Source of the DNA: Candidatus Aenigmatarchaeota archaeon
GTDB taxonomy: Archaea > Aenigmatarchaeota > Aenigmatarchaeia > QMZP01 > QMZT01
DNA length: 64,000 bases
Direction: 5' to 3'
Assembly (NCBI GenBank): GCA_043808015.1
Contig: JAZDFI010000007.1
Span: 930 to 64,929 of the forward strand
Below the pieces are notes generated by a model. It searched no databases. It saw only the letters and a program-made list of their open reading frames with translations, and was not told the DNA's origin. This document shows, piece by piece, positions 19,225 through 64,000 of the stretch. A program made the translations under genes and the position numbers. The first letter of the stretch is position 1. The number at the start of each line of letters is the position of its first letter.

Positions 19225-21444
19225 TTATTTGTAAAGCATTGGCCCGTTCTCGACTGGTTTCTTTGAGAAGACCAGCTGCTTTATCTCGGACACGTCGTCC
19301 AGCGAATTCAGCTTTATCTTCATGCCGGATATGGTGTAGAGGATGTTGTCTATGTAGAGACTTCGCTTTACGGAATAGTCGTCGCCGAAGTAATAGTATC
19401 CGGCCTTCTTGAACGTGTCGTCGCTGTCGTAGTGCGTTATGCGCCCTTTAAGCTGGAAGCCATTCTCCAGCGAGATGTCGTAGACGTACGCGCCCTGGTA
19501 TGTGTACTCGCCGTATGGCATGCCCCATCCTGGCTTTAGCGCCTGCTGTTTCTGCTCCTCGCTGATTTCCGCAAGCAGTACGGGAATGACCAGCAGGTTC
19601 TTCTCCCTGTCGAACAGGAAAGCCTTGTGGTCCTGAAGCGCATATGAATCCGTTCCCCTGTCGCCTATCACGACCTTGTACATTTCTACCGGATTCGCAA
19701 CGTCAGTCACGTCGAAAATCGCCATTTTCACTCCCTGATACCATGCGAAATCCGAAGGCATGCCCTCCTGTGATTCCGCATCGACTGCTTCTTTTCCTAT
19801 GCCTATGATGTGGTTCTCGTCATACGGGTGGAGGTAGTCTGAATAACCCGGGATTTTCAGTTTGCCCAGTATCCGCGGATTCGAATGGTCGGAAAGGTCG
19901 AGCACGAAGAACGGGTCGATTTTCTTGAAAGTGACCAGATACCCTCGTCCGCCCATGAATCTCGCTGAGTAAATCGTTTCGCCGGGAGCGATGTCCTCGA
20001 GCTTGCCGGTCATCTTGAGGTCGCTGCCGAATACGTAGATGTTGTTCTTACTCTTTTCGGTCTGCTGGCCCATGCGTGACCATGTCTGGCCTATGGTCGT
20101 GGCTATGCGGAAGTGACTATCGTACTCGTCCATGGAGAACTGGTTGAGTATGTGACCGGGCGCCTCCATGTGGCCGATGTGCGTTATCTGTCCGTCGCTT
20201 AGGGCGAACTGATGAATAAGAGTCGTCTCGGTCGGCGTGACCGGGTTCGTCTCGTCGTAAGTCATCCACATCGGGTAGCTGGTCTCGGCTATGTATATGT
20301 TCGAAAGCGAGGCGTAAACGCTCTGGCCCGAGCCCATGATGACCTGCTTAGCCACGTCGGCCTGAGGATCGTCCATCGAAATCGAAGCGATGGTTATGAA
20401 GTTCTCGGGGTTGACCGGCTCGAAGTAAGCGACTTCGTTGCAGTCAACAGTGTTTACCATCCCGGTGTCTTCAGCGACTTCGCCGGCTTTTCTGTCCCTG
20501 AACTCGGGCAATATGTCTTCCGCGGTCACGGTAGCGGAAGCCTGGCCGGCGTCGGTCGCAGTCGCTCCGCTGTAGAGCACTGGCATTATGCCATAGTTCG
20601 GGTAGGAGTTAACGATGAAATAAACGTATGAGCCAATCTTCCTCGATGAAAGGTAATTGCCCTCGAAATCGACCGAGCGGACCAGCGACGGGCTGGTCCT
20701 GTCCGCGACGTCGTATATCCTCACGGTCGCTAGCTGTATATATCTGTAAGGCTGATAATAATACGGCGGCGCAACCATTTTTTCCGATGCAGTAGAGTCT
20801 GGCACTGGAGCGCCGGATGAGCCTGAACTGCCCGAGCCGCCATATGCGGCCATTTCTTCCTCAGTGAACGGAATCTGCTTGTTCGTGCTGCCGAATATGA
20901 GAACGTAATTGCCCTGTATGAACATTTCCTGCGGGTAGAAGTCGCCAAGGTCAAGCTCGCTCAGTATTGCGGCTTCCTCGGCAGGGTATGCTTTTGCTAT
21001 AACAAGAGTGCTGTTGCTTCCACCGTAATAGTACCCGGTGGTGAGGGTGTAAATATACTGGCCGTCATTCTTGACTATGTCAGCTTCGTCGACTCCCTCG
21101 ACCTGGACATTCGTCTCGGAGTAAGCGACGCCGCCGCCACCGGCGCCGTTCGCACTCGAATCTTTGGATGCGCTCTCGGCCAAGGCCATCGGAGCGCCGG
21201 CTGCGCCGAAAGTCCTCATAAGGCCGCCCTGAAGCGTGTAATAATTCTGAGTTCTGGTCTGGATGTCTTTCAGCTTGTCGGTTATCGCGTTGCACGAGCC
21301 AAACGTTTGCAGCCGTTCGACCGGCTGCGGGTTGGAAGTGTACGCATAATACGAAACCGCGCCGCTTACCAGAAGAGCCAAAACAAAAAAAACAGCTATT
21401 CCTGCGAAGCCTTTTTTTGAGCCAAGAACCATTTTGCCATTCAT
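19225..21444 (-). CDS. Large secreted beta-propeller-domain protein (COG4880-like)
   Basis: N-terminal signal/TM anchor. 739 aa, rich in Y/G/T/N with repeated blade-like segments. Recalled similarity to archaeal secreted beta-propeller proteins. Confidence 0.45.
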   Translation of the reverse strand: MNGKMVLGSKKGFAGIAVFFVLALLVSGAVSYYAYTSNPQPVERLQTFGSCNAITDKLKDIQTRTQNYYTLQGGLMRTFGAAGAPMALAESASKDSSANGAGGGGVAYSETNVQVEGVDEADIVKNDGQYIYTLTTGYYYGGSNSTLVIAKAYPAEEAAILSELDLGDFYPQEMFIQGNYVLIFGSTNKQIPFTEEEMAAYGGSGSSGSSGAPVPDSTASEKMVAPPYYYQPYRYIQLATVRIYDVADRTSPSLVRSVDFEGNYLSSRKIGSYVYFIVNSYPNYGIMPVLYSGATATDAGQASATVTAEDILPEFRDRKAGEVAEDTGMVNTVDCNEVAYFEPVNPENFITIASISMDDPQADVAKQVIMGSGQSVYASLSNIYIAETSYPMWMTYDETNPVTPTETTLIHQFALSDGQITHIGHMEAPGHILNQFSMDEYDSHFRIATTIGQTWSRMGQQTEKSKNNIYVFGSDLKMTGKLEDIAPGETIYSARFMGGRGYLVTFKKIDPFFVLDLSDHSNPRILGKLKIPGYSDYLHPYDENHIIGIGKEAVDAESQEGMPSDFAWYQGVKMAIFDVTDVANPVEMYKVVIGDRGTDSYALQDHKAFLFDREKNLLVIPVLLAEISEEQKQQALKPGWGMPYGEYTYQGAYVYDISLENGFQLKGRITHYDSDDTFKKAGYYYFGDDYSVKRSLYIDNILYTISGMKIKLNSLDDVSEIKQLVFSKKPVENGPMLYK

Positions 21445-44977: not shown

Positions 44978-46888
44978 TCACGCGAACTTATCGAGGTCGT
45001 CGACGTCTTCGGAAACGACCGTCGTCTTCCTGAACTTGAAGTACCAGAGGAAGACGCCTGCGACCACCACGATCACGGTTATGATGATTATCCACGTGAG
45101 GTCAATCGCTGGAGCGGCTCCGCCAGCTTCGAGCATGTCCATTTTAGCCTGCGCCTTCTGGTAGTATTCGTTCGCCTGGGCGTAGTTGCCCAGCACCAGG
45201 GCGCTTTCAGCCTTGGAAATGTCCGAGCCGATATCGCTTCTCACGGTTTCGGAAATGCTCTTGCCCGCAAGCGCGTAGGAAAGGTCTGTTATGTCCCCGG
45301 AAATGTTGTCGTAGCAGTTGAGAACCACCAGTACGCTAGCAGTCTCGCCTCCTGCCTTTATGTTTATCAGGCCCTCGTATTTTCCGGCGCCGGACGGGGT
45401 GATGGATATCTCGACTGTCTCGTAATCGCCTGCCGCGACGGAAAGATCGGAAACAGGGACGTCAATGTAGCCGCTCATATCGAGCGTCTCGAGGTACTGG
45501 TCGCCGCCTCCGGTGTCCTCCACGTCGTAGCTGAAGCCCGTGAGGCCGGCAGCGCCGCTGTTGCTGACGCGGATTTCGTGATAAACAGGATCGCCGTCTA
45601 TGCAATCCCTGGAGAGAATCATCGTCTCTTTGCTGATAGACAAACTCTTGCTGCCCGTGCATGCCTGCCCGGGTTTCATCACCGTTATTGAAACGGGTAT
45701 CGCGAGTTCGAGGCCGTCACCGGATTTGACCGTCACCTTGCCATCGACATCCGCTTTGATGTTAGGCACGTCTATGCTTATCGTCGTGGCTTCGAGCGGG
45801 CCTAAAGACGATTTACCCAGGTCGACGTAGCTGTCCTTCAGGTCGCCTGACACGGAAACTGATATGTTCGTCGAGTTCTGCCTGAGATTCCTTATTTGTA
45901 TGGTTTGCGAGAAATCTTTAGACTCGTTGACGACGGCATAAATGGAATCCGGTATGAGCTCGAAGAATTCCACTATCGAAAATTTCGCCGTCTTGGCAAG
46001 CGGGCTGAGCGTGCGGATCTCGTATTCGCCCTCGGGCCAGTTGCCCTCGGACACGAAATCGTAAGAGAACGTGTGGTCGGAAGCGACTGAAACAGAAAAA
46101 TCTTTCGCCTTTTTCCCGTCCGGGTAACGTATTTCTCCCGTTACGCTGGCGGCGCTTGACGTGCCTGTCACAACGACCTTCTCCCCGGTCCAGTATTCAG
46201 CCTTGCCGGCTTGCATGGTGAGATAGTCGCCTGAAGGGATCTCGATTCTTTTTAACGTGCTGCCATACGTTCCGGACTCGTTGACCATGAACGTGAAGTA
46301 GTATACACCCGGGTTGAGCGTGATGTTGCCGGCATAGCGGGCCTGGATGACATCGTATTCTAGCGGGCGCTCGGTCTGGTATATGCTCAGGTCCTCCTTG
46401 TATATGCTGTATTTCATCCAGGCTTTCTGGGCCATGTAGAAGAACATGTATACGGTGTTGTCCACCTTGTTCACGCCCGTGAGCGGGACTGAGACTGTCG
46501 ATATGTTAAGCGGGATGGTCTTGTTAGTCGCGCCGCTGGGTGTTATGACGTTGATATACATCTCGGTCGGGCCCGCATTGAAGAAGGGCGACGGTCCGCA
46601 GGTCGCGTTGCCGTCGCTGTTGGAGAAATAACAGAGTCCCTTGCCGTCCGTTGTTGTCGGGAAAGAGCCGAGGCCTATGCTGCCCGTATTATATACTGAC
46701 CACGTGATGCGCATCGGCTTTTCAGTCGTCTTCGGATCGACTTTTATCAGGACCGCCGAGTTGACGGAAAGCACCTTCTCGTCAGGCAGTATGATGACAT
46801 CGGGGCTGTCGGCGCGGGCAAAACCCGGCACCAGCAAAAAAGCAACGGCTAAAAGTAAAACTAACCCAAAAATCCAACCCCTTTTCAT
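44978..46888 (-). CDS. Large cell-surface (S-layer-like) glycoprotein with N-terminal signal peptide and C-terminal TM anchor
   Basis: Signal GLVLLLAVAFLLVPGFARA. Over 20 N-x-S/T sequons. C-terminal TM WIIIITVIVVVAGVFLWYF plus short cytoplasmic tail. Confidence 0.55.
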   Translation of the reverse strand: MKRGWIFGLVLLLAVAFLLVPGFARADSPDVIILPDEKVLSVNSAVLIKVDPKTTEKPMRITWSVYNTGSIGLGSFPTTTDGKGLCYFSNSDGNATCGPSPFFNAGPTEMYINVITPSGATNKTIPLNISTVSVPLTGVNKVDNTVYMFFYMAQKAWMKYSIYKEDLSIYQTERPLEYDVIQARYAGNITLNPGVYYFTFMVNESGTYGSTLKRIEIPSGDYLTMQAGKAEYWTGEKVVVTGTSSAASVTGEIRYPDGKKAKDFSVSVASDHTFSYDFVSEGNWPEGEYEIRTLSPLAKTAKFSIVEFFELIPDSIYAVVNESKDFSQTIQIRNLRQNSTNISVSVSGDLKDSYVDLGKSSLGPLEATTISIDVPNIKADVDGKVTVKSGDGLELAIPVSITVMKPGQACTGSKSLSISKETMILSRDCIDGDPVYHEIRVSNSGAAGLTGFSYDVEDTGGGDQYLETLDMSGYIDVPVSDLSVAAGDYETVEISITPSGAGKYEGLINIKAGGETASVLVVLNCYDNISGDITDLSYALAGKSISETVRSDIGSDISKAESALVLGNYAQANEYYQKAQAKMDMLEAGGAAPAIDLTWIIIITVIVVVAGVFLWYFKFRKTTVVSEDVDDLDKFA

Positions 46889-48118: not shown

Positions 48119-49330
48119 ATGCATGATTTTGTTCTGCCGTTCGGGCCGCAGCATCCCGCGCTGGTCGAGCCGGCGCACATAAAGCTGCGCGTCGAGGGCG
48201 AAACGATAAAAGGGGCGGAGCTCGTCCTTGGATACAATCACAAGGGCATCGAGAAGTCGTTCGAGAACAGGCCGTGGGCGAAAGGCGTCTTTCTGAGCGA
48301 GCGCGTGTGCGGCATATGCGGCCACTACCACACGGCGTGCTACTGCCAGGGCATCGAGCAGATGCTCGGCATCGAGATTCCGGACCGCGCTAAGCACATA
48401 CGCACGCTCGTCAGCGAGCTGGAGCGCATGCATTCGCACATGCTCGCGCTGGGCCTGGTTGCATGGGAAGTGGGCCTCGATACACTGTTTCATTATCTGT
48501 TCCGCGACCGCGAGCTCGTCATGGATATGCAGGAGGCGCTTACCGGCGGACGCGTGCACTTCGCGATGAACGTGATAGGCGGCGTACGAAGGGACGTGGG
48601 TCAGGAAAACTACGGCAGGATGGCCAAAAACCTCGACGCGCTTGAAGAGCGCATGAAACATTATCTGAGCGTTTTCAGGAATGATTCTTTGATGAAAATC
48701 AGGACCAGAAACGTGGGGCATCTGTCTCGAATGAAAGCGAAGGAGCTGAACCCGGTCGGCCCGAACCTGCGCGCTTCCGGAATCGATTACGACGTGCGCG
48801 AAACCGGCTACATGGCATACAAGGACCTCAAGTTCAGGGCCGTGACCGGCGAGGGCGGCGACGCGCAGGAGCGCTGCATAGTCCGCGTGAAGGAATGCCT
48901 CGAATCGATACGCATGATCCGGCTGTCGCTGACTACTCTGACTGAAATAAAGGGCGACATATCGCTCAAGCTCCCGGCAGCCGTAAGCGTAAAAGAAGGC
49001 CTCGAAACCGTGTCGCGGGTTGAGGCACCGCGCGGCGAGCTGTTCTATTATCTGCAGTCCGCAGGCGCGAAGCCGTCGAGGGTGCGCATACGCACGCCTA
49101 CATACCAGACCTTCCACGTCCTGGAGGAAATACTGAAAGGCCACACGATATCCGACGTGCCCGTAATAGTCGCATCGCTGGATCCATGCTTCTCGTGCAC
49201 GGACAGGATGACCATAATCGACACTAAATCGCGCAAGGAGAAAATAATAACCAAGCACGAAATCCTGCACATGCGAGACGACGCACACGGAGCGCATGAA
49301 CACAGCCACGGAGGCCACAAGCATGTTTGA
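48119..49330 (+). CDS. Group 4 [NiFe]-hydrogenase large subunit (Ech/Mbh/HycE-like) with His-rich C-terminal extension
   Basis: L1 motif RVCGICGHYH (RxCGxCxxxH) and L2 motif DPCFSCTDR (DPCxxCxxR), followed by 38-aa tail MTIIDTK...HGAHEHSHGGHKHV, a putative HycI-cleaved extension. Confidence 0.8.
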   Translation: MHDFVLPFGPQHPALVEPAHIKLRVEGETIKGAELVLGYNHKGIEKSFENRPWAKGVFLSERVCGICGHYHTACYCQGIEQMLGIEIPDRAKHIRTLVSELERMHSHMLALGLVAWEVGLDTLFHYLFRDRELVMDMQEALTGGRVHFAMNVIGGVRRDVGQENYGRMAKNLDALEERMKHYLSVFRNDSLMKIRTRNVGHLSRMKAKELNPVGPNLRASGIDYDVRETGYMAYKDLKFRAVTGEGGDAQERCIVRVKECLESIRMIRLSLTTLTEIKGDISLKLPAAVSVKEGLETVSRVEAPRGELFYYLQSAGAKPSRVRIRTPTYQTFHVLEEILKGHTISDVPVIVASLDPCFSCTDRMTIIDTKSRKEKIITKHEILHMRDDAHGAHEHSHGGHKHV

Positions 49331-50249
49331 ATCGCTTTTGACGCCTCAGCTGGCGCAGAATGTTTTCAATATGCTCGTCTTTCCGGGATTCCTCGCCGCC
49401 TTCATAATCGGCTTCCTTTACATGGGCATAGTGCGCAAGGTCAGCGCCCGCATGCAGCATCGGGTCGGACCGCCGTTGTGGCAGCCGTTCTTCGACTTCT
49501 TCAAACTGCTTTCCAAGGAGAACATAACCACGCGCGACGCGACGGGCGCGCTAGCTACGCTCTGCCCGGTGGTCTCGTTCGCGTCGCTGATGACGGTCGC
49601 GCTTTTCATACCCATCGCCGGTATTCCCGGTTTGTTCAGCGTCGAACCCATATCGTTCCAGGGCAGCCTTTTTGTCGTGCTTTACTTCCTGATAATGTCT
49701 TCCGTATTTTTCGCTGTCGCCGGTTTCGCTGCCGGCAATCCTTTCGCTTCGCTCGGCAGCATACGCGAGCTGACGCAGCTGTTCGCTTACGAATTCCCCT
49801 TCGTCATTTCCCTGGTCACGCTGGGCATATTCACGGGCTTTCGTATCGTGCCGCTTTTCGCCCTGCAGCTGCCGTTCGCGTTCTTCGCATTTCTCATGGG
49901 CGTGCTGGGAAAACTCTCGCTTCCTCCGTTCCACATACCGGACGCGGAGCAGGAGATAGTCGCAGGCCCCACGACGGAATACAGCGGTCCCAGACTAGCG
50001 ATGTTCGAGCTGGCCAAAGCGGCGGGATTCTGGGTGCTGATATCGCTGGGCGCGGTCCTTTACCTCGGAGCGGACAGCCTTCTCGCCTTCGCAGTTTATT
50101 CGCTCGCGTTACTGGCGGTACTGATCGTATTCCGCGTCGTGTTCGCCAGGCTGCAGATAGCCCAGGCTTTCAGGTTTTACTGGTTCGTCGTAGGGCCGCT
50201 TGCGCTCATCGACCTCGCCAGGGTCCTGCTCGGATATTATGTTATGTAG
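49323..50249 (+). CDS. Hydrogenase membrane subunit, NuoH/HycD/EchB-like
   Basis: 8 TM helices, RKVSARMQHRVGPP...PFFDFFKLL is NuoH-family. Start taken at ATG 49323 (8-nt overlap with upstream stop). Confidence 0.7.
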   Translation: MFESLLTPQLAQNVFNMLVFPGFLAAFIIGFLYMGIVRKVSARMQHRVGPPLWQPFFDFFKLLSKENITTRDATGALATLCPVVSFASLMTVALFIPIAGIPGLFSVEPISFQGSLFVVLYFLIMSSVFFAVAGFAAGNPFASLGSIRELTQLFAYEFPFVISLVTLGIFTGFRIVPLFALQLPFAFFAFLMGVLGKLSLPPFHIPDAEQEIVAGPTTEYSGPRLAMFELAKAAGFWVLISLGAVLYLGADSLLAFAVYSLALLAVLIVFRVVFARLQIAQAFRFYWFVVGPLALIDLARVLLGYYVM

Positions 50250-50599: not shown

Positions 50600-51307
50600 T
50601 TATCCATCTTTATGTTTGCCGTTTTTCCCACCAGAGAAAGCGCTCCCTATTCTACTGATGGCGCTTGACTGGCGCTCGAATTCCTTCTCCAGCATGGTGC
50701 CGAGCATCTTCTTTTTGTAAAGGCTGCTTATGATTTCCGCTACCTTGTCGCCAGCGGCTCTGGCCTCGCTGCCGAGGGGCTGGCCGAACTCGTTGCTTTT
50801 CTTCTGTATGCCGATTATGGTGACCGGGCTTTTCACCGGCTGGTCGGCATTGTAAAGGCGCAGGAAAATGCTGAGCGGCGTGATGTGCGTCGACATGGCC
50901 GTGTCGCTTAACTCGTAGTCCCTTATCACTTTAAGGCTTCCGGGCCTCCTGCCGAAATCCGCGGCGTCGACGATTATGAGAAGCGTGGGGGTGAACGCCT
51001 TCAGCTCGCGTACGTGATCTTCGGGCATCGCCGTCTTTATGAAAAGGAAATATTCGTCTTTGCCTATCAGTTTCTTTAGTTTTTCAGCTACGTACGGGCC
51101 GACGCCATCGTCGCCTTTCAGGTCGTTGCCAACGCCGAGAATGGCGAAGCGCTCCTTGCGCAGCTTATCCTCCTTGAAATTCCTGTATATATCGTTTATG
51201 GACTCGATGAATTTCTTGTCTTCGGCTGGCTTGCCGTCCTTCGCAGGCGCCTTAGCGTCCTTAGAACCCCTGTGAAAAATGTTCCTGCCTGGCTTCGGGA
51301 ACTTCAT
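50600..51307 (-). CDS. hycI: Hydrogenase maturation endopeptidase (HycI/HyaD family) with N-terminal Lys-rich extension
   Basis: ILGVGNDLKGDDGVG (conserved GxGNxLxxDDGxG) and downstream D/H residues. Confidence 0.7.
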   Translation of the reverse strand: MKFPKPGRNIFHRGSKDAKAPAKDGKPAEDKKFIESINDIYRNFKEDKLRKERFAILGVGNDLKGDDGVGPYVAEKLKKLIGKDEYFLFIKTAMPEDHVRELKAFTPTLLIIVDAADFGRRPGSLKVIRDYELSDTAMSTHITPLSIFLRLYNADQPVKSPVTIIGIQKKSNEFGQPLGSEARAAGDKVAEIISSLYKKKMLGTMLEKEFERQSSAISRIGSAFSGGKNGKHKDG

Positions 51308-59118: not shown

Positions 59119-59406
59119 TTAAATCTTGTTGACTTTCTCTATGCCAACCTTCTTGACGAATGCCTTCTTAATCCTTGCAGGCAACCACTCCGGCCTCTTC
59201 TCGGGGGCGTCCACAACCTTCACGCTTCCCTTGAAGACGTGGATTGTGTAAGTTCTGTCCTTGTTTCTCCTGCCTCTTTCGCGGAGCTTTATGTCAGCTA
59301 TGCCCCTCGCCGCGGCCTTAAGAGCGGCCTGTCTCGGAGACCTGCCTGTGAATACAGACACGTTGTTGCCTTTCTTAAGAAGGTAATACTTTTTTCTCGA
59401 AGCCAT
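59119..59406 (-). CDS. Chromosomal protein MC1
   Basis: VFTGRSPRQAALKAAARG, IKLRERG, HVFKGSVKVVDAPEKRPEWLPARIKKAFVKKVGIEKV align block for block with Methanosarcina MC1. Confidence 0.8.
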   Translation of the reverse strand: MASRKKYYLLKKGNNVSVFTGRSPRQAALKAAARGIADIKLRERGRRNKDRTYTIHVFKGSVKVVDAPEKRPEWLPARIKKAFVKKVGIEKVNKI

Positions 59407-59599: not shown

Positions 59600-59983
59600 A
59601 TGAATGAAGCGACGCGCGAGGCAATGAGGAACGGCAATTACATTTTCGTGAACGAGAAGAAAGATGATAATTTTTACCGCTTTCTCAACGCAATCACGAA
59701 TAACCCGGCGGCAATACTGAGGGCCCTTGACAAGTACTGGAACGACGCGCATGAAATCGATGGAAAAATAAATCAAATACAGCAGGAAGTGGGAATAAAA
59801 GTGGAAGACTTGTACGTGCCTTCGGTGGCATTCACGTGCATCGTGCCAAACCTCAAGGAAATCGGAAAGGTGGCGGAAAGGATTAAAATGGACGACTTCG
59901 GCTATGACGCAGCGCTCACGGCCGCGCGCCTCAGGACAGTGAAAGACTGCGTGACAAGCATGAAAAAAAAGTTCGGGCTGTGA
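59600..59983 (+). CDS. Hypothetical protein upstream of pilin cluster
   Basis: 127 aa ORF, no family recognised. Confidence 0.4.
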   Translation: MNEATREAMRNGNYIFVNEKKDDNFYRFLNAITNNPAAILRALDKYWNDAHEIDGKINQIQQEVGIKVEDLYVPSVAFTCIVPNLKEIGKVAERIKMDDFGYDAALTAARLRTVKDCVTSMKKKFGL

Positions 59984-60025
59984 AAAATCAGATGGTTTTT
60001 ATTCGGGCTCCAACATTAATTAACT

Positions 60026-60700
60026 ATGGACTTCGACTGGATAATAGGCGTTTTCGTGTTCATGGTTTTCATCGGCTGGTCTTTCTCGTATTATTTCGCC
60101 ATGTTTCAGGTACAGGGCTCCAGCTTCGAGCTCGCCGCGGACAGCGGCCAGCAGAAGGTCATGGACTTCCTGGCAGTCGATGTATACGAAGCGCCGGTTA
60201 AGTATTATTCATCCGGCACCGTCGCCGATGGTGTGCTTAAAGCGAAGTCGCTGTGGTATGCGGGCGAGCGCAACTCGACGATAGTTTTCGGCGGCGGCTC
60301 GCTGCCGTGCAGACTCGATGGGAATGACGTCTACTGGCAGGCTAACGTCGGAGCCGGATACAACTATTACACCATAATGTTCGCCGATGTCAACACGACG
60401 CTGAACTGCACCGGCACATTCGCCACGACCGGAGCGAACCTCACGTCGCCCTGGGCGCTTGAGAAGAGAGAGATGATTTCAACGGCGAAGATAAGCGAGA
60501 TGGAAGGCATGAGCTACAGCAGCTTCCGCAATGGCATCTCGCTGAGGCACAATTTCATGATAACGATAGAGAAGACGTCTGGTAACGTGGAATACGGGAA
60601 GGCGATTCCTTCCGGACCAGTTAATGTAAACAGCAGGAAGACGGAGCGCAAGGTCTTCGAGACGGGCGAGCTGGCGAATATTACGATAGCTGTGTGGTAA
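60026..60700 (+). CDS. N-terminally membrane-anchored extracellular protein (pilus-cluster member)
   Basis: N-terminal hydrophobic IIGVFVFMVFIGWSFSYYFAMF, then Thr/Asn/Gly-rich extracellular region with N-x-T sequons. Confidence 0.4.
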   Translation: MDFDWIIGVFVFMVFIGWSFSYYFAMFQVQGSSFELAADSGQQKVMDFLAVDVYEAPVKYYSSGTVADGVLKAKSLWYAGERNSTIVFGGGSLPCRLDGNDVYWQANVGAGYNYYTIMFADVNTTLNCTGTFATTGANLTSPWALEKREMISTAKISEMEGMSYSSFRNGISLRHNFMITIEKTSGNVEYGKAIPSGPVNVNSRKTERKVFETGELANITIAVW

Positions 60701-60701
60701 C

Positions 60702-61070
60702 ATGAAGGGCTTCTGGAGGATAGTGGAAAGCGTGATGGCGGTCATCATAGTCATGGGTTTCCTCTTGTCGGCCGGGTCCGTTTATCTCAGCAGGACTGAT
60801 CCGCAGGAGCTGGTCCCGGCCGGTTACGAGCGATTGAAGGACCTGGATGCGCGCGGCCTGCTGCGGTCTCTAGCGTCAGCGAACGACTACGAAGGGATAA
60901 GCGCGCTGGTCGAGATGCCTGGCTACAGCCACGCTGTCCAGTTATGCGGCTTCGACGGCGCATGCACCGGCAATTACACGGAGGGCAGCAACGTTGCGGT
61001 CTCGACTTACATCATTGCCGGACACGGGTCATACAGCCCGCAAGAGATAAGGCTTTACATGTGGAGATGA
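60702..61070 (+). CDS. Pilin-like protein with class III (type IV prepilin-like) signal peptide
   Basis: MKG|FWRIVESVMAVIIVMGFLL has KG then hydrophobic helix, with Glu at +6. Confidence 0.5.
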   Translation: MKGFWRIVESVMAVIIVMGFLLSAGSVYLSRTDPQELVPAGYERLKDLDARGLLRSLASANDYEGISALVEMPGYSHAVQLCGFDGACTGNYTEGSNVAVSTYIIAGHGSYSPQEIRLYMWR

Positions 61071-61642
61071 ATATGAGAACGACGAAAAGAATGAAAGGAC
61101 AGTTCTTCTTAATCGGAGCTTTCCTCATACTCCTGCTTTTCTACATGGGCATATCGACTTTTTTCGCGCCCGCCTACACGCAGAAGGGCATAAAGGGCGA
61201 GATGGCTAACTTTTTTTCTAACGTGAGAGACGAATACCCGGCGGCGCTGAACCTTGGGCTTAATTCGACTGGAGGCGCGCAGGCGCTCGTAAATTTCACG
61301 GGCATAGTCGTCAATGCCTCCAAGAGCAGAGGAGCGTCGCTAGCGGCGCTGTGGATACTCACCCAGAACTCCAGCGACAATCTTAACGTAACCATCGGCA
61401 ACTACATGGGCGCGGCGCTGAACGTCACGCTGAACGTCTCTGACGAGATGAGCACGCTGGAAATTGGCGACGGCGAAACTGCGTCGGTGGTATTCGCTTC
61501 GCCGCTGTCGGAACTGGATTTCCGGGCAAGCTTTAATACGACCGAAAAGAATCTATTATTAGAGAAATACAAGACAAACCTCTATGTTTTTCTAGACATG
61601 AGGAAGGGCAGCGACAAGATAACGGGGGAGACTGTTGCATGA
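61067..61642 (+). CDS. Archaeal type IV pilin-like protein
   Basis: MNMRTTKRMKG|QFFLIGAFLILLLFYMGI is a class III signal peptide with KGQ cleavage context. ATGA overlap with upstream gene. Confidence 0.6.
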   Translation: MNMRTTKRMKGQFFLIGAFLILLLFYMGISTFFAPAYTQKGIKGEMANFFSNVRDEYPAALNLGLNSTGGAQALVNFTGIVVNASKSRGASLAALWILTQNSSDNLNVTIGNYMGAALNVTLNVSDEMSTLEIGDGETASVVFASPLSELDFRASFNTTEKNLLLEKYKTNLYVFLDMRKGSDKITGETVA

Positions 61643-62349
61643 AGGGCATCAGCCTGATCTCAGGCGTATTGTTCATGGGCTTCCTGATAGCCGCTACTAG
61701 CATAGTCTACTGGACTGCGCTGCCTACGATTCAGAAAATGCAGTGTTCGATAACTATGGACAAGATGAAATCGACGTTCACGAGCCTCGACGGCGTCATA
61801 CAGACCGTCGCTTCCGAAGGCGAAGGGTCGAAGCGCACGGTCTCGCTCAACGTGGAGGACGGCGAACTGCACGTCGACGGCGACAACGACACGATTTACT
61901 GGGAATACGAGTGCAGCGCCCCCATCATTTCGCCGAGGACGTTCCAGACTTTCGGCAACGTCATATTCGGAGCGAACCTCGACACCAGCGCACAAGAAGC
62001 GACGTGCGGCGGACAAGCTGGATTCCTGCTCGAGAACGAGCACCTCACAGTCTGCCTGAGGAAAATCGGCTCCGCGGGCAACAACACGGCCTACAACATA
62101 TCCAGCGTTCTGGTCTCGGTCTACCAGAAGGACCTTGAACAGGCGATGCCCATAGAGTATCTTGAGATAACGCTCGACAACAACGCGACGTCGTCGACCG
62201 GCGAGGGTTACACGCAGCTCGAGCGGAGCGGCATGCACCTGCCTTACGGAGAAGTCACGGCGCACATGGAATCGGACTACGGTATAACATACGACATAAA
62301 ATTCATACTCGAGTCGGGAGAGGACTTCCTCATCATAAAAGGTGAGTGA
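61639..62349 (+). CDS. Pilin-like protein with class III signal peptide
   Basis: MKG|ISLISGVLFMGFLIAATSIVYW. ATGA overlap with upstream gene. Confidence 0.5.
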   Translation: MKGISLISGVLFMGFLIAATSIVYWTALPTIQKMQCSITMDKMKSTFTSLDGVIQTVASEGEGSKRTVSLNVEDGELHVDGDNDTIYWEYECSAPIISPRTFQTFGNVIFGANLDTSAQEATCGGQAGFLLENEHLTVCLRKIGSAGNNTAYNISSVLVSVYQKDLEQAMPIEYLEITLDNNATSSTGEGYTQLERSGMHLPYGEVTAHMESDYGITYDIKFILESGEDFLIIKGE

Positions 62350-62359
62350 CACAGGTGAT

Positions 62360-62887
62360 ATGATGAAATACCGCACGAAATTCCACACGAGAAAGGGCAT
62401 TTCACCGCTGATAGCGACGGTGATGCTCATAGGCATAACCATTCTAATGGCCGTCGCTGTCGGACCGTGGGCCATGAAACTCGCGACCGACGCGACCCAG
62501 GGAGCGACGAACAGCGCGAACCAGGACATGCTATGCAGGTCGACGGCGTATGGCTTCGATTCAGATTACGGCAACTCCGGTGTTTCGTGGAACTTCAACG
62601 GCACCAACGGCACGGTCACCGTGAAAATAATCAACACTGGCTCGCAGAACCTCTACAACTTCTCGCTCGAGCTGACCATGCAGACGCCCACAGGGACGAA
62701 ACTTATAGTCTATCCCGAGATAAACATAACGTCCGAGACGCAGCGCACGCTCACGAACCCGCTCAAACCCGGCTACGACTGGATAATCGAGGCGGAAGTG
62801 GAAAGCATAAACGACACGTGGTCGCTGACCAAGGTGAAGGTGATAAACGAGGTATGCCCGCGCATATCGCCTTCGGCGGACGTGTGA
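62360..62887 (+). CDS. Archaeal type IV pilin (DUF361-type N-terminus)
   Basis: MMKYRTKFHTRKG|ISPLIATVMLIGITILMAVAV is the canonical archaeal pilin N-terminal domain. SD aggtga upstream. N-x-T sequons in the body. Confidence 0.75.
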   Translation: MMKYRTKFHTRKGISPLIATVMLIGITILMAVAVGPWAMKLATDATQGATNSANQDMLCRSTAYGFDSDYGNSGVSWNFNGTNGTVTVKIINTGSQNLYNFSLELTMQTPTGTKLIVYPEINITSETQRTLTNPLKPGYDWIIEAEVESINDTWSLTKVKVINEVCPRISPSADV

Positions 62888-62937
62888 AATTTAAGACTTA
62901 TATGACCAGTGACAATATTTAATTAGACGTGGTGTTA

Positions 62938-64000
62938 ATGGACGAAGATTCAAATTTGACAAAGGACCTCACGGATAAGCTATCGACTCTCGAGGACCTG
63001 CAGAACCTCACGCAGCTCGACATACTCAACATGAAGAACGAGGTCGAGAAGCTCAAGCTCACTTCGTCGTCTCCGCTTCCCAAGGAAACCGAGGAAAGGA
63101 TAATGATGCTCCAGTCCATCGCTAAAGACGTAGAGATGTTCAAGCGGTGGAAGCAGACGGTCGAGGAAGTCAAGTTCCTGCGCGACAGGCTGATGGGCAT
63201 TTCGCCTGTCAATGTCACGCCAGAGGACGCCGGAGACTTCGAACAGATGAAAAGGAGCATAGAGGAAATGCGCGCCGAGATCGCCTCGAAGAAGAGCGCG
63301 CCAATCGACCTGGACGACATAAAGCTGGCCATACAGGAGAACAGGAAGGCCGTGGAGAATCTCAAGTTAATGATAACCGACAAGCCGAAGGGCGCGATGC
63401 CCGACGCCGAGCCGCTGAGGAAGATGGTGACCGAGAACAGGAGAATCGTCGACGACCTCAAGATGAAGATGGACGTTTCCAATTTCGAAGTCCCGGCAGG
63501 CATGCGGCGGGATATCGAAAGCCTTCACGCTGAAATAAACAACCTCGAGGGCGAGGTCAGGAAAATCAAAACCGACAAAATCGTTCCTCGCTCGAATGAC
63601 GACATGGACCACCTGAGAAACGAGCTGTTCAGCAAGCTGGACGATCTCAACGTCAAATTCGGGCCGAAGAGCTCAGAAGAAGTGAAAAAGGCGATGGAAG
63701 CCAACAAGGCGAGCATCGACAAGCTGAAGGCGCTCATATCCGGGGAGGAGATGAGCATCGAGAGCCTGAAGCAGGAGATGGGCGAGAACAGGAAGTTCAT
63801 GACGGAGATAAAGAGCGTCCTGCTTTCCAAAAGCGCGACTACAGGCAAGAAAATCACTCTTACGCAGGACCCTGACATAAAGACCAAGCTTTCGAAGATG
63901 GAGCAGAGAATCGAGATGCTGGCCGCCAGGATGGAGAAGCTTAACGACCTTAAGCCGATAAAGCTGCCCGACTTCGAGCCGTCTCCAGCGGCGGCGAAGG
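62938..64000 (+). CDS. Long coiled-coil protein (3' partial; open to window end), not in ORF track
   Basis: ATG at 62938. 354 codons with no stop through nt 64000. Heptad-rich (LEDLQNLTQLDILNMKNEVEKLKL..., repeated K/E-rich segments). Confidence 0.55.
   Translation, partial: MDEDSNLTKDLTDKLSTLEDLQNLTQLDILNMKNEVEKLKLTSSSPLPKETEERIMMLQSIAKDVEMFKRWKQTVEEVKFLRDRLMGISPVNVTPEDAGDFEQMKRSIEEMRAEIASKKSAPIDLDDIKLAIQENRKAVENLKLMITDKPKGAMPDAEPLRKMVTENRRIVDDLKMKMDVSNFEVPAGMRRDIESLHAEINNLEGEVRKIKTDKIVPRSNDDMDHLRNELFSKLDDLNVKFGPKSSEEVKKAMEANKASIDKLKALISGEEMSIESLKQEMGENRKFMTEIKSVLLSKSATTGKKITLTQDPDIKTKLSKMEQRIEMLAARMEKLNDLKPIKLPDFEPSPAAAK

Follow-up and report, generated by a model that had tools for sequence, protein, structure and literature searches.

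A candidate pilin module of a type IV pilus-like surface filament in an Aenigmarchaeota (DPANN) archaeon

The P2-P7 array and its pilin-like proteins

The 64 kb stretch of DNA analysed here (the window), from contig JAZDFI010000007.1 of an Aenigmarchaeota archaeon, carries within positions 60026-64000 six co-directional genes on the + strand, labelled P2 to P7, that we consider a candidate pilin module of a type IV pilus-like filament. P2 (60026-60700, +; 224 aa) has a hydrophobic N-terminal helix without a K/R-G leader, followed by an extracellular-type domain. The next four proteins have class-III-type N-termini. P3 (60702-61070, +; 122 aa; MKG↓FWRIVES, the arrow marking the predicted cleavage site) and P4 (61067-61642, +; 191 aa; ..MKG↓QFFLIGA) are predicted minor pilins; P5 (61639-62349, +; 236 aa; MKG↓ISLISG) is DUF7289-like and predicted to be the signature minor (tip or adaptor) pilin; and P6 (62360-62887, +; 175 aa; ..RKG↓ISPLIATVMLIG) is of the PilA/Pilin_N type and predicted to be the major filament subunit. 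P7 runs from an ATG at 62938 to the window end at 64000 (+), where it is still open after 354 codons, and encodes a coiled-coil protein predicted to be a cytoplasmic accessory. The first-pass annotation of this DNA had proposed one operon whose genes overlap by ATGA. A tightly packed single array is indeed present, but such overlaps occur at only two junctions, P3/P4 and P4/P5, with gaps of 1 nt between P2 and P3, 10 nt between P5 and P6 and 50 nt between P6 and P7.

A TATA-like box read from the sequence, TTTTTATT (59996-60003, +), is centred about 26 nt 5' of the P2 ATG and is a putative archaeal promoter that would yield a leaderless operon transcript. For comparison we used related loci, designated here by L numbers; the first 53 fetched comprise 643 kb, and 57 were available when the P7 motif and P1 (see below) were counted. 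The stretch TGGTTTTTATTCGGGCTCCAACATTAATTAA is kept in one of these relatives, L058, the complete intergenic region of which is 81% identical to that of the window.

As the first-pass annotation had stated in assigning class III signal peptides to the genes at 60702, 61067, 61639 and 62360, all four products have [K/R]-G followed by a hydrophobic helix (P3, MKG↓FWRIVESVMAVIIVMGFLL; P4, ..RMKG↓QFFLIGAFLILLLFYMG; P5, MKG↓ISLISGVLFMGFLIAAT; P6, ..HTRKG↓ISPLIATVMLIGITILMAV), although the hydrophobic stretch of P3 bears an invariant Glu at +6. The leader expected of a pilin, namely a short basic segment, [K/R]-[G/A/S] and some 20 hydrophobic residues, is thus present in P3 to P6 and absent from P2, the N-terminus of which, MDFDWIIGVFVFMVFIGW, is a helix lacking K/R-G. 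When class-III-like N-termini were defined as [KR][GA] within the first 22 residues with a mean Kyte-Doolittle value of at least 1.7 over the following 20 residues, eight open reading frames (ORFs) in the window were picked, four of which are the consecutive P3, P4, P5 and P6, while codon-shuffled windows (n=20) held 0-1 such ORFs each. The leader motifs are invariant within each family (P3, KG↓FWRxxES; P4, KG↓QFF; P5, KG↓ISLISG; P6, [KR]G↓[IV]SP[LI]I). N-glycosylation sequons number 1.7-4.2 per 100 aa in P2, P4, P5 and P6 as against 0-0.7 in cytoplasmic neighbours, and the pilin-like proteins have paired conserved Cys, as extracellular domains would have. Acidic residues within the N-terminal helix are found only in P2 (Asp) and P3 (Glu at +6), and none is present in the predicted major subunit.

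P6 can be assigned to the PilA/DUF1628 (Pilin_N)-type pilins. P6 scores above the cutoff of TIGR02537, the NCBIfam model of the archaellin/type IV pilin N-terminus (22.7 bits against 20), and reaches 18.6 bits against Pfam PF07790 (Pilin_N), under the gathering threshold of 25.2; among its homologues, 18 of 30 match Pilin_N at E<=0.01 (best 4e-7) and 8 of 30 match CARDB. The best matches of the P6 family profile to sequences in the PDB are pilins of Pyrobaculum calidifontis (8fk7, 4.1e-6) and Natrinema (PilA2, 8gi2, 1e-4), followed by 8fj5 (1.8e-3). The AF2 model, of moderate confidence (pLDDT 71.5), has a helix at residues 16-62 and a CARDB-like beta-sandwich head, and leading, though not significant, Foldseek matches to the PDB include 8fk7 (E=0.011) and the soluble domain of FlaF (4p94; probability 1.0, TM-score 0.53 on the target, E=0.019). 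P6 shares with the solved PilA-type pilins 8fk7, 8gi2 and 8fj5 a homologous N-terminal domain, the motif [K/R]-G/A↓hydrophobic-S-P-[LIV]-I and a helix-plus-beta-sandwich plan. It differs in that its head is only weakly similar to theirs, with a CARDB-like sandwich and an invariant Cys pair (Cys59/Cys166), and in that it is known from genes alone. The DUF361/Class_IIIsignal family (PF04021) is described in Pfam by Gln at +1 and a QxSxExxxL motif. The earlier description of P6 as a DUF361-type pilin does not hold, as PF04021 was unmatched at E<=1 and mature P6 would begin ISPLIATVM; Gln at +1 is found in P4 alone, without the rest of the QxSxExxxL motif.

P5 is modelled by AF2 with higher confidence (pLDDT 88) as a pilin 'lollipop', in which a 59-residue N-terminal helix (residues 2-60) bears a beta head that has no solved relative by either Foldseek or profile comparison with the PDB. 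P5 and P6 share a homologous N-terminal region (hhalign probability 94%, E=1e-7). The window protein matches DUF7289 (PF23960) over residues 7-81 only (16.9 bits, E=0.005; gathering threshold 27), and 17 of 27 homologues match it at E<=0.01 (best 4.2e-8); PF23960 is also precomputed on several P5 homologues in databases, and on a 1454-aa relative this match is unmarked (strong). A profile search of 1.84 billion cluster representatives returned 1238 relatives, some as long as 1485 aa and many with long C-terminal, adhesin-like additions that include Laminin_G_3, beta-propeller and Flg_new_2 modules. An exact-sequence look-up of the window P5 gave no record, tblastn of a divergent DUF7289-positive homologue against the PLSDB plasmids was without a match, and we found no literature on DUF7287, DUF7288 or DUF7289. 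By description, P5 resembles the variable-length 'signature' minor pilin arCOG02911, an all-beta protein of 250-550 aa that accompanies PilA in euryarchaeal pili (PMC4858521).

The start of P2 (MDFDW...; five sequons, two conserved Cys) is fixed by an in-frame TAA three codons 5' of its ATG. Among its orthologues, the called ORF begins M-[DERQ]-[IV]-D-[WS] in 16 of 18, that of L003 has the same motif at an internal Met and the N-terminus of L044 was unrecovered; a K/R-G leader is found in none of those with a recovered N-terminus. In L054 and L056 the gene directly 5' of P3 encodes a larger, leader-bearing protein (MKG↓AFEVDY.. and ..KKG↓FNQVDL..., respectively). These counterparts end ..LW and ..WIW, P2 itself ends ..AVW, and the P2 family aligns with their C-terminal parts weakly but concordantly (hhalign E=3.6e-4 and 7e-4, probability 26-37%). 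If they are orthologous, P2 would have lost its leader, so that it now starts 2-3 residues past the ancestral cleavage site while keeping the Asp at +5. The protein previously read as membrane-anchored thus appears to be not merely anchored but pilin-like, with a lost leader, and is probably a leaderless subunit or an anchor. At the other end, the P2 and P3 families and their counterparts at the distant loci share a C-terminal strand, ..[LIV]x[VLY][YAT][VIL]W (window 60680-60700 and 61050-61067; L054 5272-6982; L056 16301-17615). In L006 (1-6914) and L050 (1068-4086) the P2 position is occupied by a very large surface protein ending ..KIYTWME, of 2076 aa as called in L006, where it is cut by the contig end, and with more than 700 aa visible in L050.

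P3 has an invariant Gly at -1, Trp at +2 and Glu at +6, together with two conserved Cys; P4 has eight sequons and an invariant Gly and Gln at the cleavage motif, and matches no Pfam family. P2 matches DUF7287 (PF23958) weakly, in 6 of 16 members (best E=0.011) and over the N-terminal helix only, and P3 matches DUF7288 (PF23959) in 2 of 20 at E=0.045, both below the gathering thresholds. Together with P5 and DUF7289 these matches are colinear (P2 to DUF7287, P3 to DUF7288, P5 to DUF7289), which is suggestive and should be treated as a lead, not a result. Profiles of P2, P3, P4 and P5 gave no meaningful match to PDB sequences, and hhalign comparisons of P2 with P3 and of P4 with P6 were not significant.

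The report of a long coiled-coil ORF of more than 354 codons after the pilin genes was correct: by a home-made measure, heptad-like periodicity extends over 41% of the open frame of P7, compared with about 10% in shuffles. Because P7 has no signal peptide, transmembrane (TM) or other hydrophobic segment (maximum 19-residue hydropathy <0.7; 37% charged residues), it is most likely a cytoplasmic protein, with an accessory role assigned by analogy. Its suggested identity as a pilus-associated fibre or adhesin is unlikely, as it lacks an export signal and a hydrophobic segment, and we rejected an extracellular fibre on the former ground. Full-length relatives are about 360-700 aa long (481-492 aa in the closest, which is about the full length expected of P7) and consist of a conserved N-module (..LDILNMKNEVEK..), a variable heptad-rich middle and a conserved C-module with the extreme C-terminus G/S-P-hydrophobic-hydrophobic-I-E (in one form G-P-[VM]-F-I-E). 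Of the 57 loci, 26 have the N-module motif [LM][DN]xxNxxxE.., each of them exactly once and right after P6, and the motif is absent from the rest of the roughly 0.7 Mb. Some lineages encode the N-module as a small protein of its own with a terminal Zn-ribbon (CPxCG...CxxCG), and in these the C-module lies on a downstream coiled-coil protein, which keeps the tail ..P-x-[VI]-I-E (L007 11357-13475; L022 2651-3136; L026; L041; L005 11257-14472; L025 11204-11908); because they can be split in this way, the two modules probably work together. Searches of Pfam and NCBIfam with P7, its full-length relatives and the isolated modules yielded nothing beyond coiled-coil noise below threshold, such as DUF7310, FlaC_arch, HalX and Spectrin. 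The nearest described analogue, by description, is arCOG07564, an intracellular coiled coil of subclade-4F pilus loci for which a regulatory role has been proposed (PMC4858521).

Conservation of the array and location of the assembly motor

Named homologues of the array come almost all from Candidatus Aenigmarchaeota/Aenigmatarchaeota. About 20 of the first 53 loci share the order P2-P3-P4-P5-P6-P7, and about 40 have P5 and P6 as a pair. A stand-alone cluster is also present on contig_22876 (CAVSBQ010000002.1, 1.1 Mb); CP070801.1 has a solitary P5, with P6 undetected. Identity to the relatives compared is 58-83% for P5, 52-83% for P6, 37-69% for P2-P4 and 27-73% for P7, so that P2-P4 and P7 are the faster-diverging members, and the conservation of P5 and P6 is similar to that of RPE, transaldolase and UDP-glucose dehydrogenase at the same loci; the closest relative, L058, is 83% identical to the window in both P5 and P6.

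No product resembling a T2SSE ATPase, a TadC/FlaJ platform or an A24 peptidase is encoded in the 64 kb window. A T2SSE-type Walker A motif (G..G[SAT]GK[TS][TS]) is found in none of its frames, and its multi-TM ORFs are all otherwise explained (SecY-like, by sequence only, NuoH-type, SpoIIM, M50 and M48), in agreement with the previous statement that no assembly ATPase, platform or peptidase precedes the window end. That statement had left room for the machinery to lie beyond 64 kb or to be shared; a position just past the window end is improbable. In the syntenic loci L001, L003 and L058, the 10 kb after P7 hold nothing but housekeeping genes (RNase HII and AspRS in 3/3, DUF2179 in two, AsnA in two), and for this reason the motor for the window cluster is most likely encoded elsewhere and acts in trans. 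Both Haloferax and Halobacterium have documented pilin sets that stand apart from an ATPase/TadC module, and ATPase, TadC, the minor pilin arCOG02911 and PilA make up the ancestral plan in euryarchaea (PMC4858521).

Two more distant loci, from other members of the phylum, place homologues of these pilins directly downstream of KaiC-like, TadC and TadC (T2SSF) genes, ahead of which stands a T2SSE gene wherever the sequence extends far enough. In L054 the order is KaiC-like ATPase, T2SSF, T2SSF, a surface protein, class-III proteins, homologues of P3 (blastp 1.7e-19), P4 (8.8e-8) and P6, and a 1084-aa P5 homologue (4.6e-26). In L056, on the complete Aenigmatarchaeota chromosome CP066684.1, it is T2SSE, KaiC-like, T2SSF, T2SSF, a 1388-aa protein, a class-III protein, P2-like, P3 (tblastn 1.4e-7), P4 (hhalign probability 92%, E=5e-7), three P6-like genes and a P5-like gene (1.7e-27). 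At a further locus, L057, five PilA-like genes in tandem lie near the motor and the minor-pilin set is lacking. TadC homologues are widely labelled Aenigmatarchaeota.

A housekeeping block of Pus10, ribosomal L21e and Rpb4 genes flanks P5-P6-P7 in L005 (10001-16457) and L007 (10001-15852) and the 1454-aa P5 relative in L055 (14827-16825). The same block in L057 (7501-17457) flanks the T2SSE-KaiC-TadC2 motor and the tandem PilA array, a hint that motor and pilins may have been linked around it ancestrally.

A proposed filament and the alternatives to it

We interpret the region as the pilin (structural-subunit) module of a type IV pilus-like surface filament, and give this interpretation a probability of roughly three in four. 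The recognition of type-IV-pilin-like genes in the first-pass annotation is borne out by the TIGR02537 match of P6, the profile matches to solved pilins, the models of P5 and P6 and the homologues that adjoin a motor. According to the proposed mechanism, the preproteins would insert into the membrane and a prepilin peptidase encoded elsewhere would cut after the conserved Gly; a T2SSE/KaiC-like/TadC2 motor acting in trans would then extract the subunits and polymerise P6 as the major subunit. P2-P5 would be present in low abundance as a complex for priming or at the tip, in which P5 would be the signature minor pilin, an adaptor or adhesin-type subunit. Translation of P2 would begin near the mature N-terminus of its leader-bearing counterparts, so that the peptidase would not be needed, and P7 would assist or regulate the system as a coiled-coil partner in the cytoplasm. 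The filament probably serves attachment, either between cells or to a host; attachment to other cells is generally proposed for DPANN pili (PMC9938205, PMC6393860).

The closest described systems are euryarchaeal type IV pili with several pilins, namely subclades 4C/4F and the PilB4-type locus of Haloferax volcanii (Makarova, Koonin & Albers 2016, PMC4858521). These share with the present array a PilA-family pilin beside a variable-length signature minor pilin and further distinct pilins, the separability of the pilins from the ATPase/TadC module, a KaiC-like ATPase in the motor locus and, in 4F, the intracellular coiled coil arCOG07564; on the Aenigmarchaeota side the weak colinear DUF matches point the same way. 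The array differs from them in its DPANN host, in the leaderless P2, in the lack of a significant match of P2-P4 and P7 to described families, in a likeness to arCOGs that is one of description, and in that the cluster lies amid housekeeping genes and is unusually conserved. The 'dark matter' type IV pili islands of DPANN archaea combine a FliI-like ATPase, TadC and surface proteins with unrecognisable proteins that have signal peptides and are read as pilins (Makarova, Wolf & Koonin 2019, PMC6393860, Fig. 2A). L054 and L056 look like such islands, whereas the pilin set of the window stands alone, without the signature motor genes. The parallel drawn here with bacteria is with four divergent pilin-like proteins co-encoded with one major pilin, and with one family having large adhesin-type additions. 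Bacterial minor-pilin priming and tip complexes of this kind are GspH-I-J-K of the type II secretion system (T2SS) and FimU-PilV-W-X of the type IVa pilus. The likeness is one of analogy, no homology in sequence or structure having been shown, and the acidic helix residues are in P2 and P3 and not in the major subunit.

Several observations weigh against this interpretation. The window P5 and P6 fall under the Pfam gathering thresholds, Foldseek searches of the PDB with their models gave nothing at E<=1e-3, and for P2, P3 and P4 neither Pfam nor profile searches of PDB sequences gave a significant match. An ATPase, platform or prepilin peptidase was found within 10 kb of P5 in none of the first 53 loci, and in no genome with a stand-alone P2-P7 cluster was a motor or prepilin peptidase demonstrated, the window and those loci containing neither. 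The prediction that P6 is the major and P2-P5 the minor subunits is made purely by analogy. Finally, the housekeeping-level conservation of P5 and P6 is notable, being atypical for exposed, fast-evolving pilins.

This last feature would suit a short pseudopilus in place of a long adhesive pilus, the piston of a secretion or competence-like DNA-uptake device with one major and four minor pseudopilins, as in the T2SS (GspG and GspHIJK) or ComG, since such conservation is nearer that of core machinery than of exposed antigenic fibres. An operon with five pilin-like proteins, of which one is PilA-like and the other four are divergent, would fit it as well, as would the dependence of DPANN archaea on scavenged biomolecules. 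Ultra-small archaea with pilin and competence genes have also been reported (PMC9938205). However, no ComEC/ComEA, secretin-like or substrate genes are present at the locus or in its relatives, and the P5-family paralogues with adhesin-like modules (Laminin_G_3, beta-propeller) suggest binding functions. We know of no archaeal T2SS-like piston and regard a pseudopilus as unlikely. We find it very unlikely that P5 and P6 (and P2) are instead ArlF/ArlG-like envelope-anchoring, stator-type proteins of an archaellum-like rotary machine and not filament subunits. Some P6 homologues do bear the JGI label 'FlaG/FlaF family flagellin', the P6 model matches the FlaF soluble domain 4p94, P6 has a weak match to the ArlF NCBIfam model (12.7 bits, E=0.1, cutoff 110), the P2 anchor is uncleaved, and an ArlH-like KaiC ATPase lies between the T2SSE and TadC genes in the motor operon of relatives. 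Set against this, the cleavage motif of P6 is the canonical one of PilA, and the sequences that P6 matches best are pilins that form filaments; the window has no archaellin gene, with Arch_flagellin (PF01917) unmatched by any of its proteins and matched by only 2 of 30 P6 relatives, at E of about 1e-3; and KaiC-like ATPases are also known partners of archaeal type IV pili other than the archaellum (PMC4858521).

At the other extreme, the N-termini might resemble those of pilins by coincidence, the genes encoding unrelated small membrane or secreted proteins processed by an ordinary signal peptidase, with no pilus involved. The lack of a significant family assignment for P2-P4, and of a peptidase or ATPase nearby, would be in keeping with this. 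We nevertheless consider it effectively excluded, judging from four consecutive motif-bearing genes where shuffled windows have 0-1, from the matches that link the P6 family with solved pilins and the P5 family with DUF7289, and from the colinear homologues beside T2SSE/TadC in L054 and L056. Substrate-binding proteins of the bindosome type were rejected, no substrate-binding domain being present.

Within the pilus interpretation a stronger version can be formulated, which we regard as doubtful. In this version P2-P7 would be a DPANN-specific, near-housekeeping attachment organelle in which P2 is free of peptidase processing (an invariant Asp being kept where the leader-bearing counterparts in L054 and L056 have Asp at +5) and P7 is an obligatory partner, whose N-module LDIINLKNEIEK (sometimes Zn-ribbon-fused) and G-P-hydrophobic-hydrophobic-I-E tail would couple the T2SSE/KaiC-like motor to another cellular system. 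If true, peptidase-free P2 and obligatory P7 would both be without a described precedent among archaeal type IV pili. Otherwise the system is of a known kind with mostly uncharacterised subunit families: pilin operons of this type in archaea, motors acting in trans, KaiC-like partners, coiled-coil accessories and DPANN 'dark-matter' islands (PMC6393860) are already described. The points of interest are the unusually conserved P5 and P6, the leaderless pilin-like P2 and the always-adjacent, uncharacterised coiled-coil P7.

DPANN archaea are thought to depend on contact with a host, and pili are the usual suspects, although their subunits are mostly unrecognisable 'dark matter'. In this context, the array defines a phylum-wide Aenigmatarchaeota pilin set, in which three further families join a PilA-type subunit and a signature pilin of the DUF7289 type, tied to a T2SSE/KaiC/TadC motor via the loci of other phylum members. 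P7 and P2 are flagged as testable accessory components, and the conservation of the P5 and P6 families is sufficient for their use as markers or antigens with which to find the attachment structures of these organisms.

Flanking genes and further surface proteins

Upstream of the array lie a pentose-phosphate/UDP-glucose-dehydrogenase block and a divergently oriented gene for an MC1 chromatin protein (59119-59406, - strand). An Rfam scan of 55-64 kb gave zero matches. Between the MC1 gene and P2 is P1, a 127-aa ORF (59600-59983, +) that is preceded by a separate TATA-like box. The 57 related loci contain no homologue of P1, and L058 holds the same DNA (81% identity) with the frame disrupted, so P1 appears to be a lineage-restricted small gene or a decaying ORF; we rejected it as part of the pilin system, as it is missing from most relatives and broken in the closest. 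A 289-aa antisense ORF (61660-62529, -) overlaps P5 and P6 and is presumably spurious, as the conserved proteins are those of the + strand.

Elsewhere in the window, positions 48119-50249 and about 50600-51307 contain an apparent membrane-bound hydrogenase/complex-I-like module with a NuoH-type subunit of 317 aa (PF00146). In relatives the HycI maturation protease adjoins SpoIIM, and the module would be notable metabolic equipment for a DPANN genome. Two further proteins may be exposed at the cell surface. A 636-aa protein (44978-46888, -) with a Sec-type signal peptide, a C-terminal hydrophobic segment, nine sequons and no Pfam match is a candidate S-layer or surface protein. A 739-aa Beta_propel protein (19225-21444, -; PF09826, E=6e-165) has a class-III-looking N-terminus, MNGKMVLGSKKG↓FAGIAVFFVLALLV, and may be a further prepilin-peptidase substrate or surface protein.

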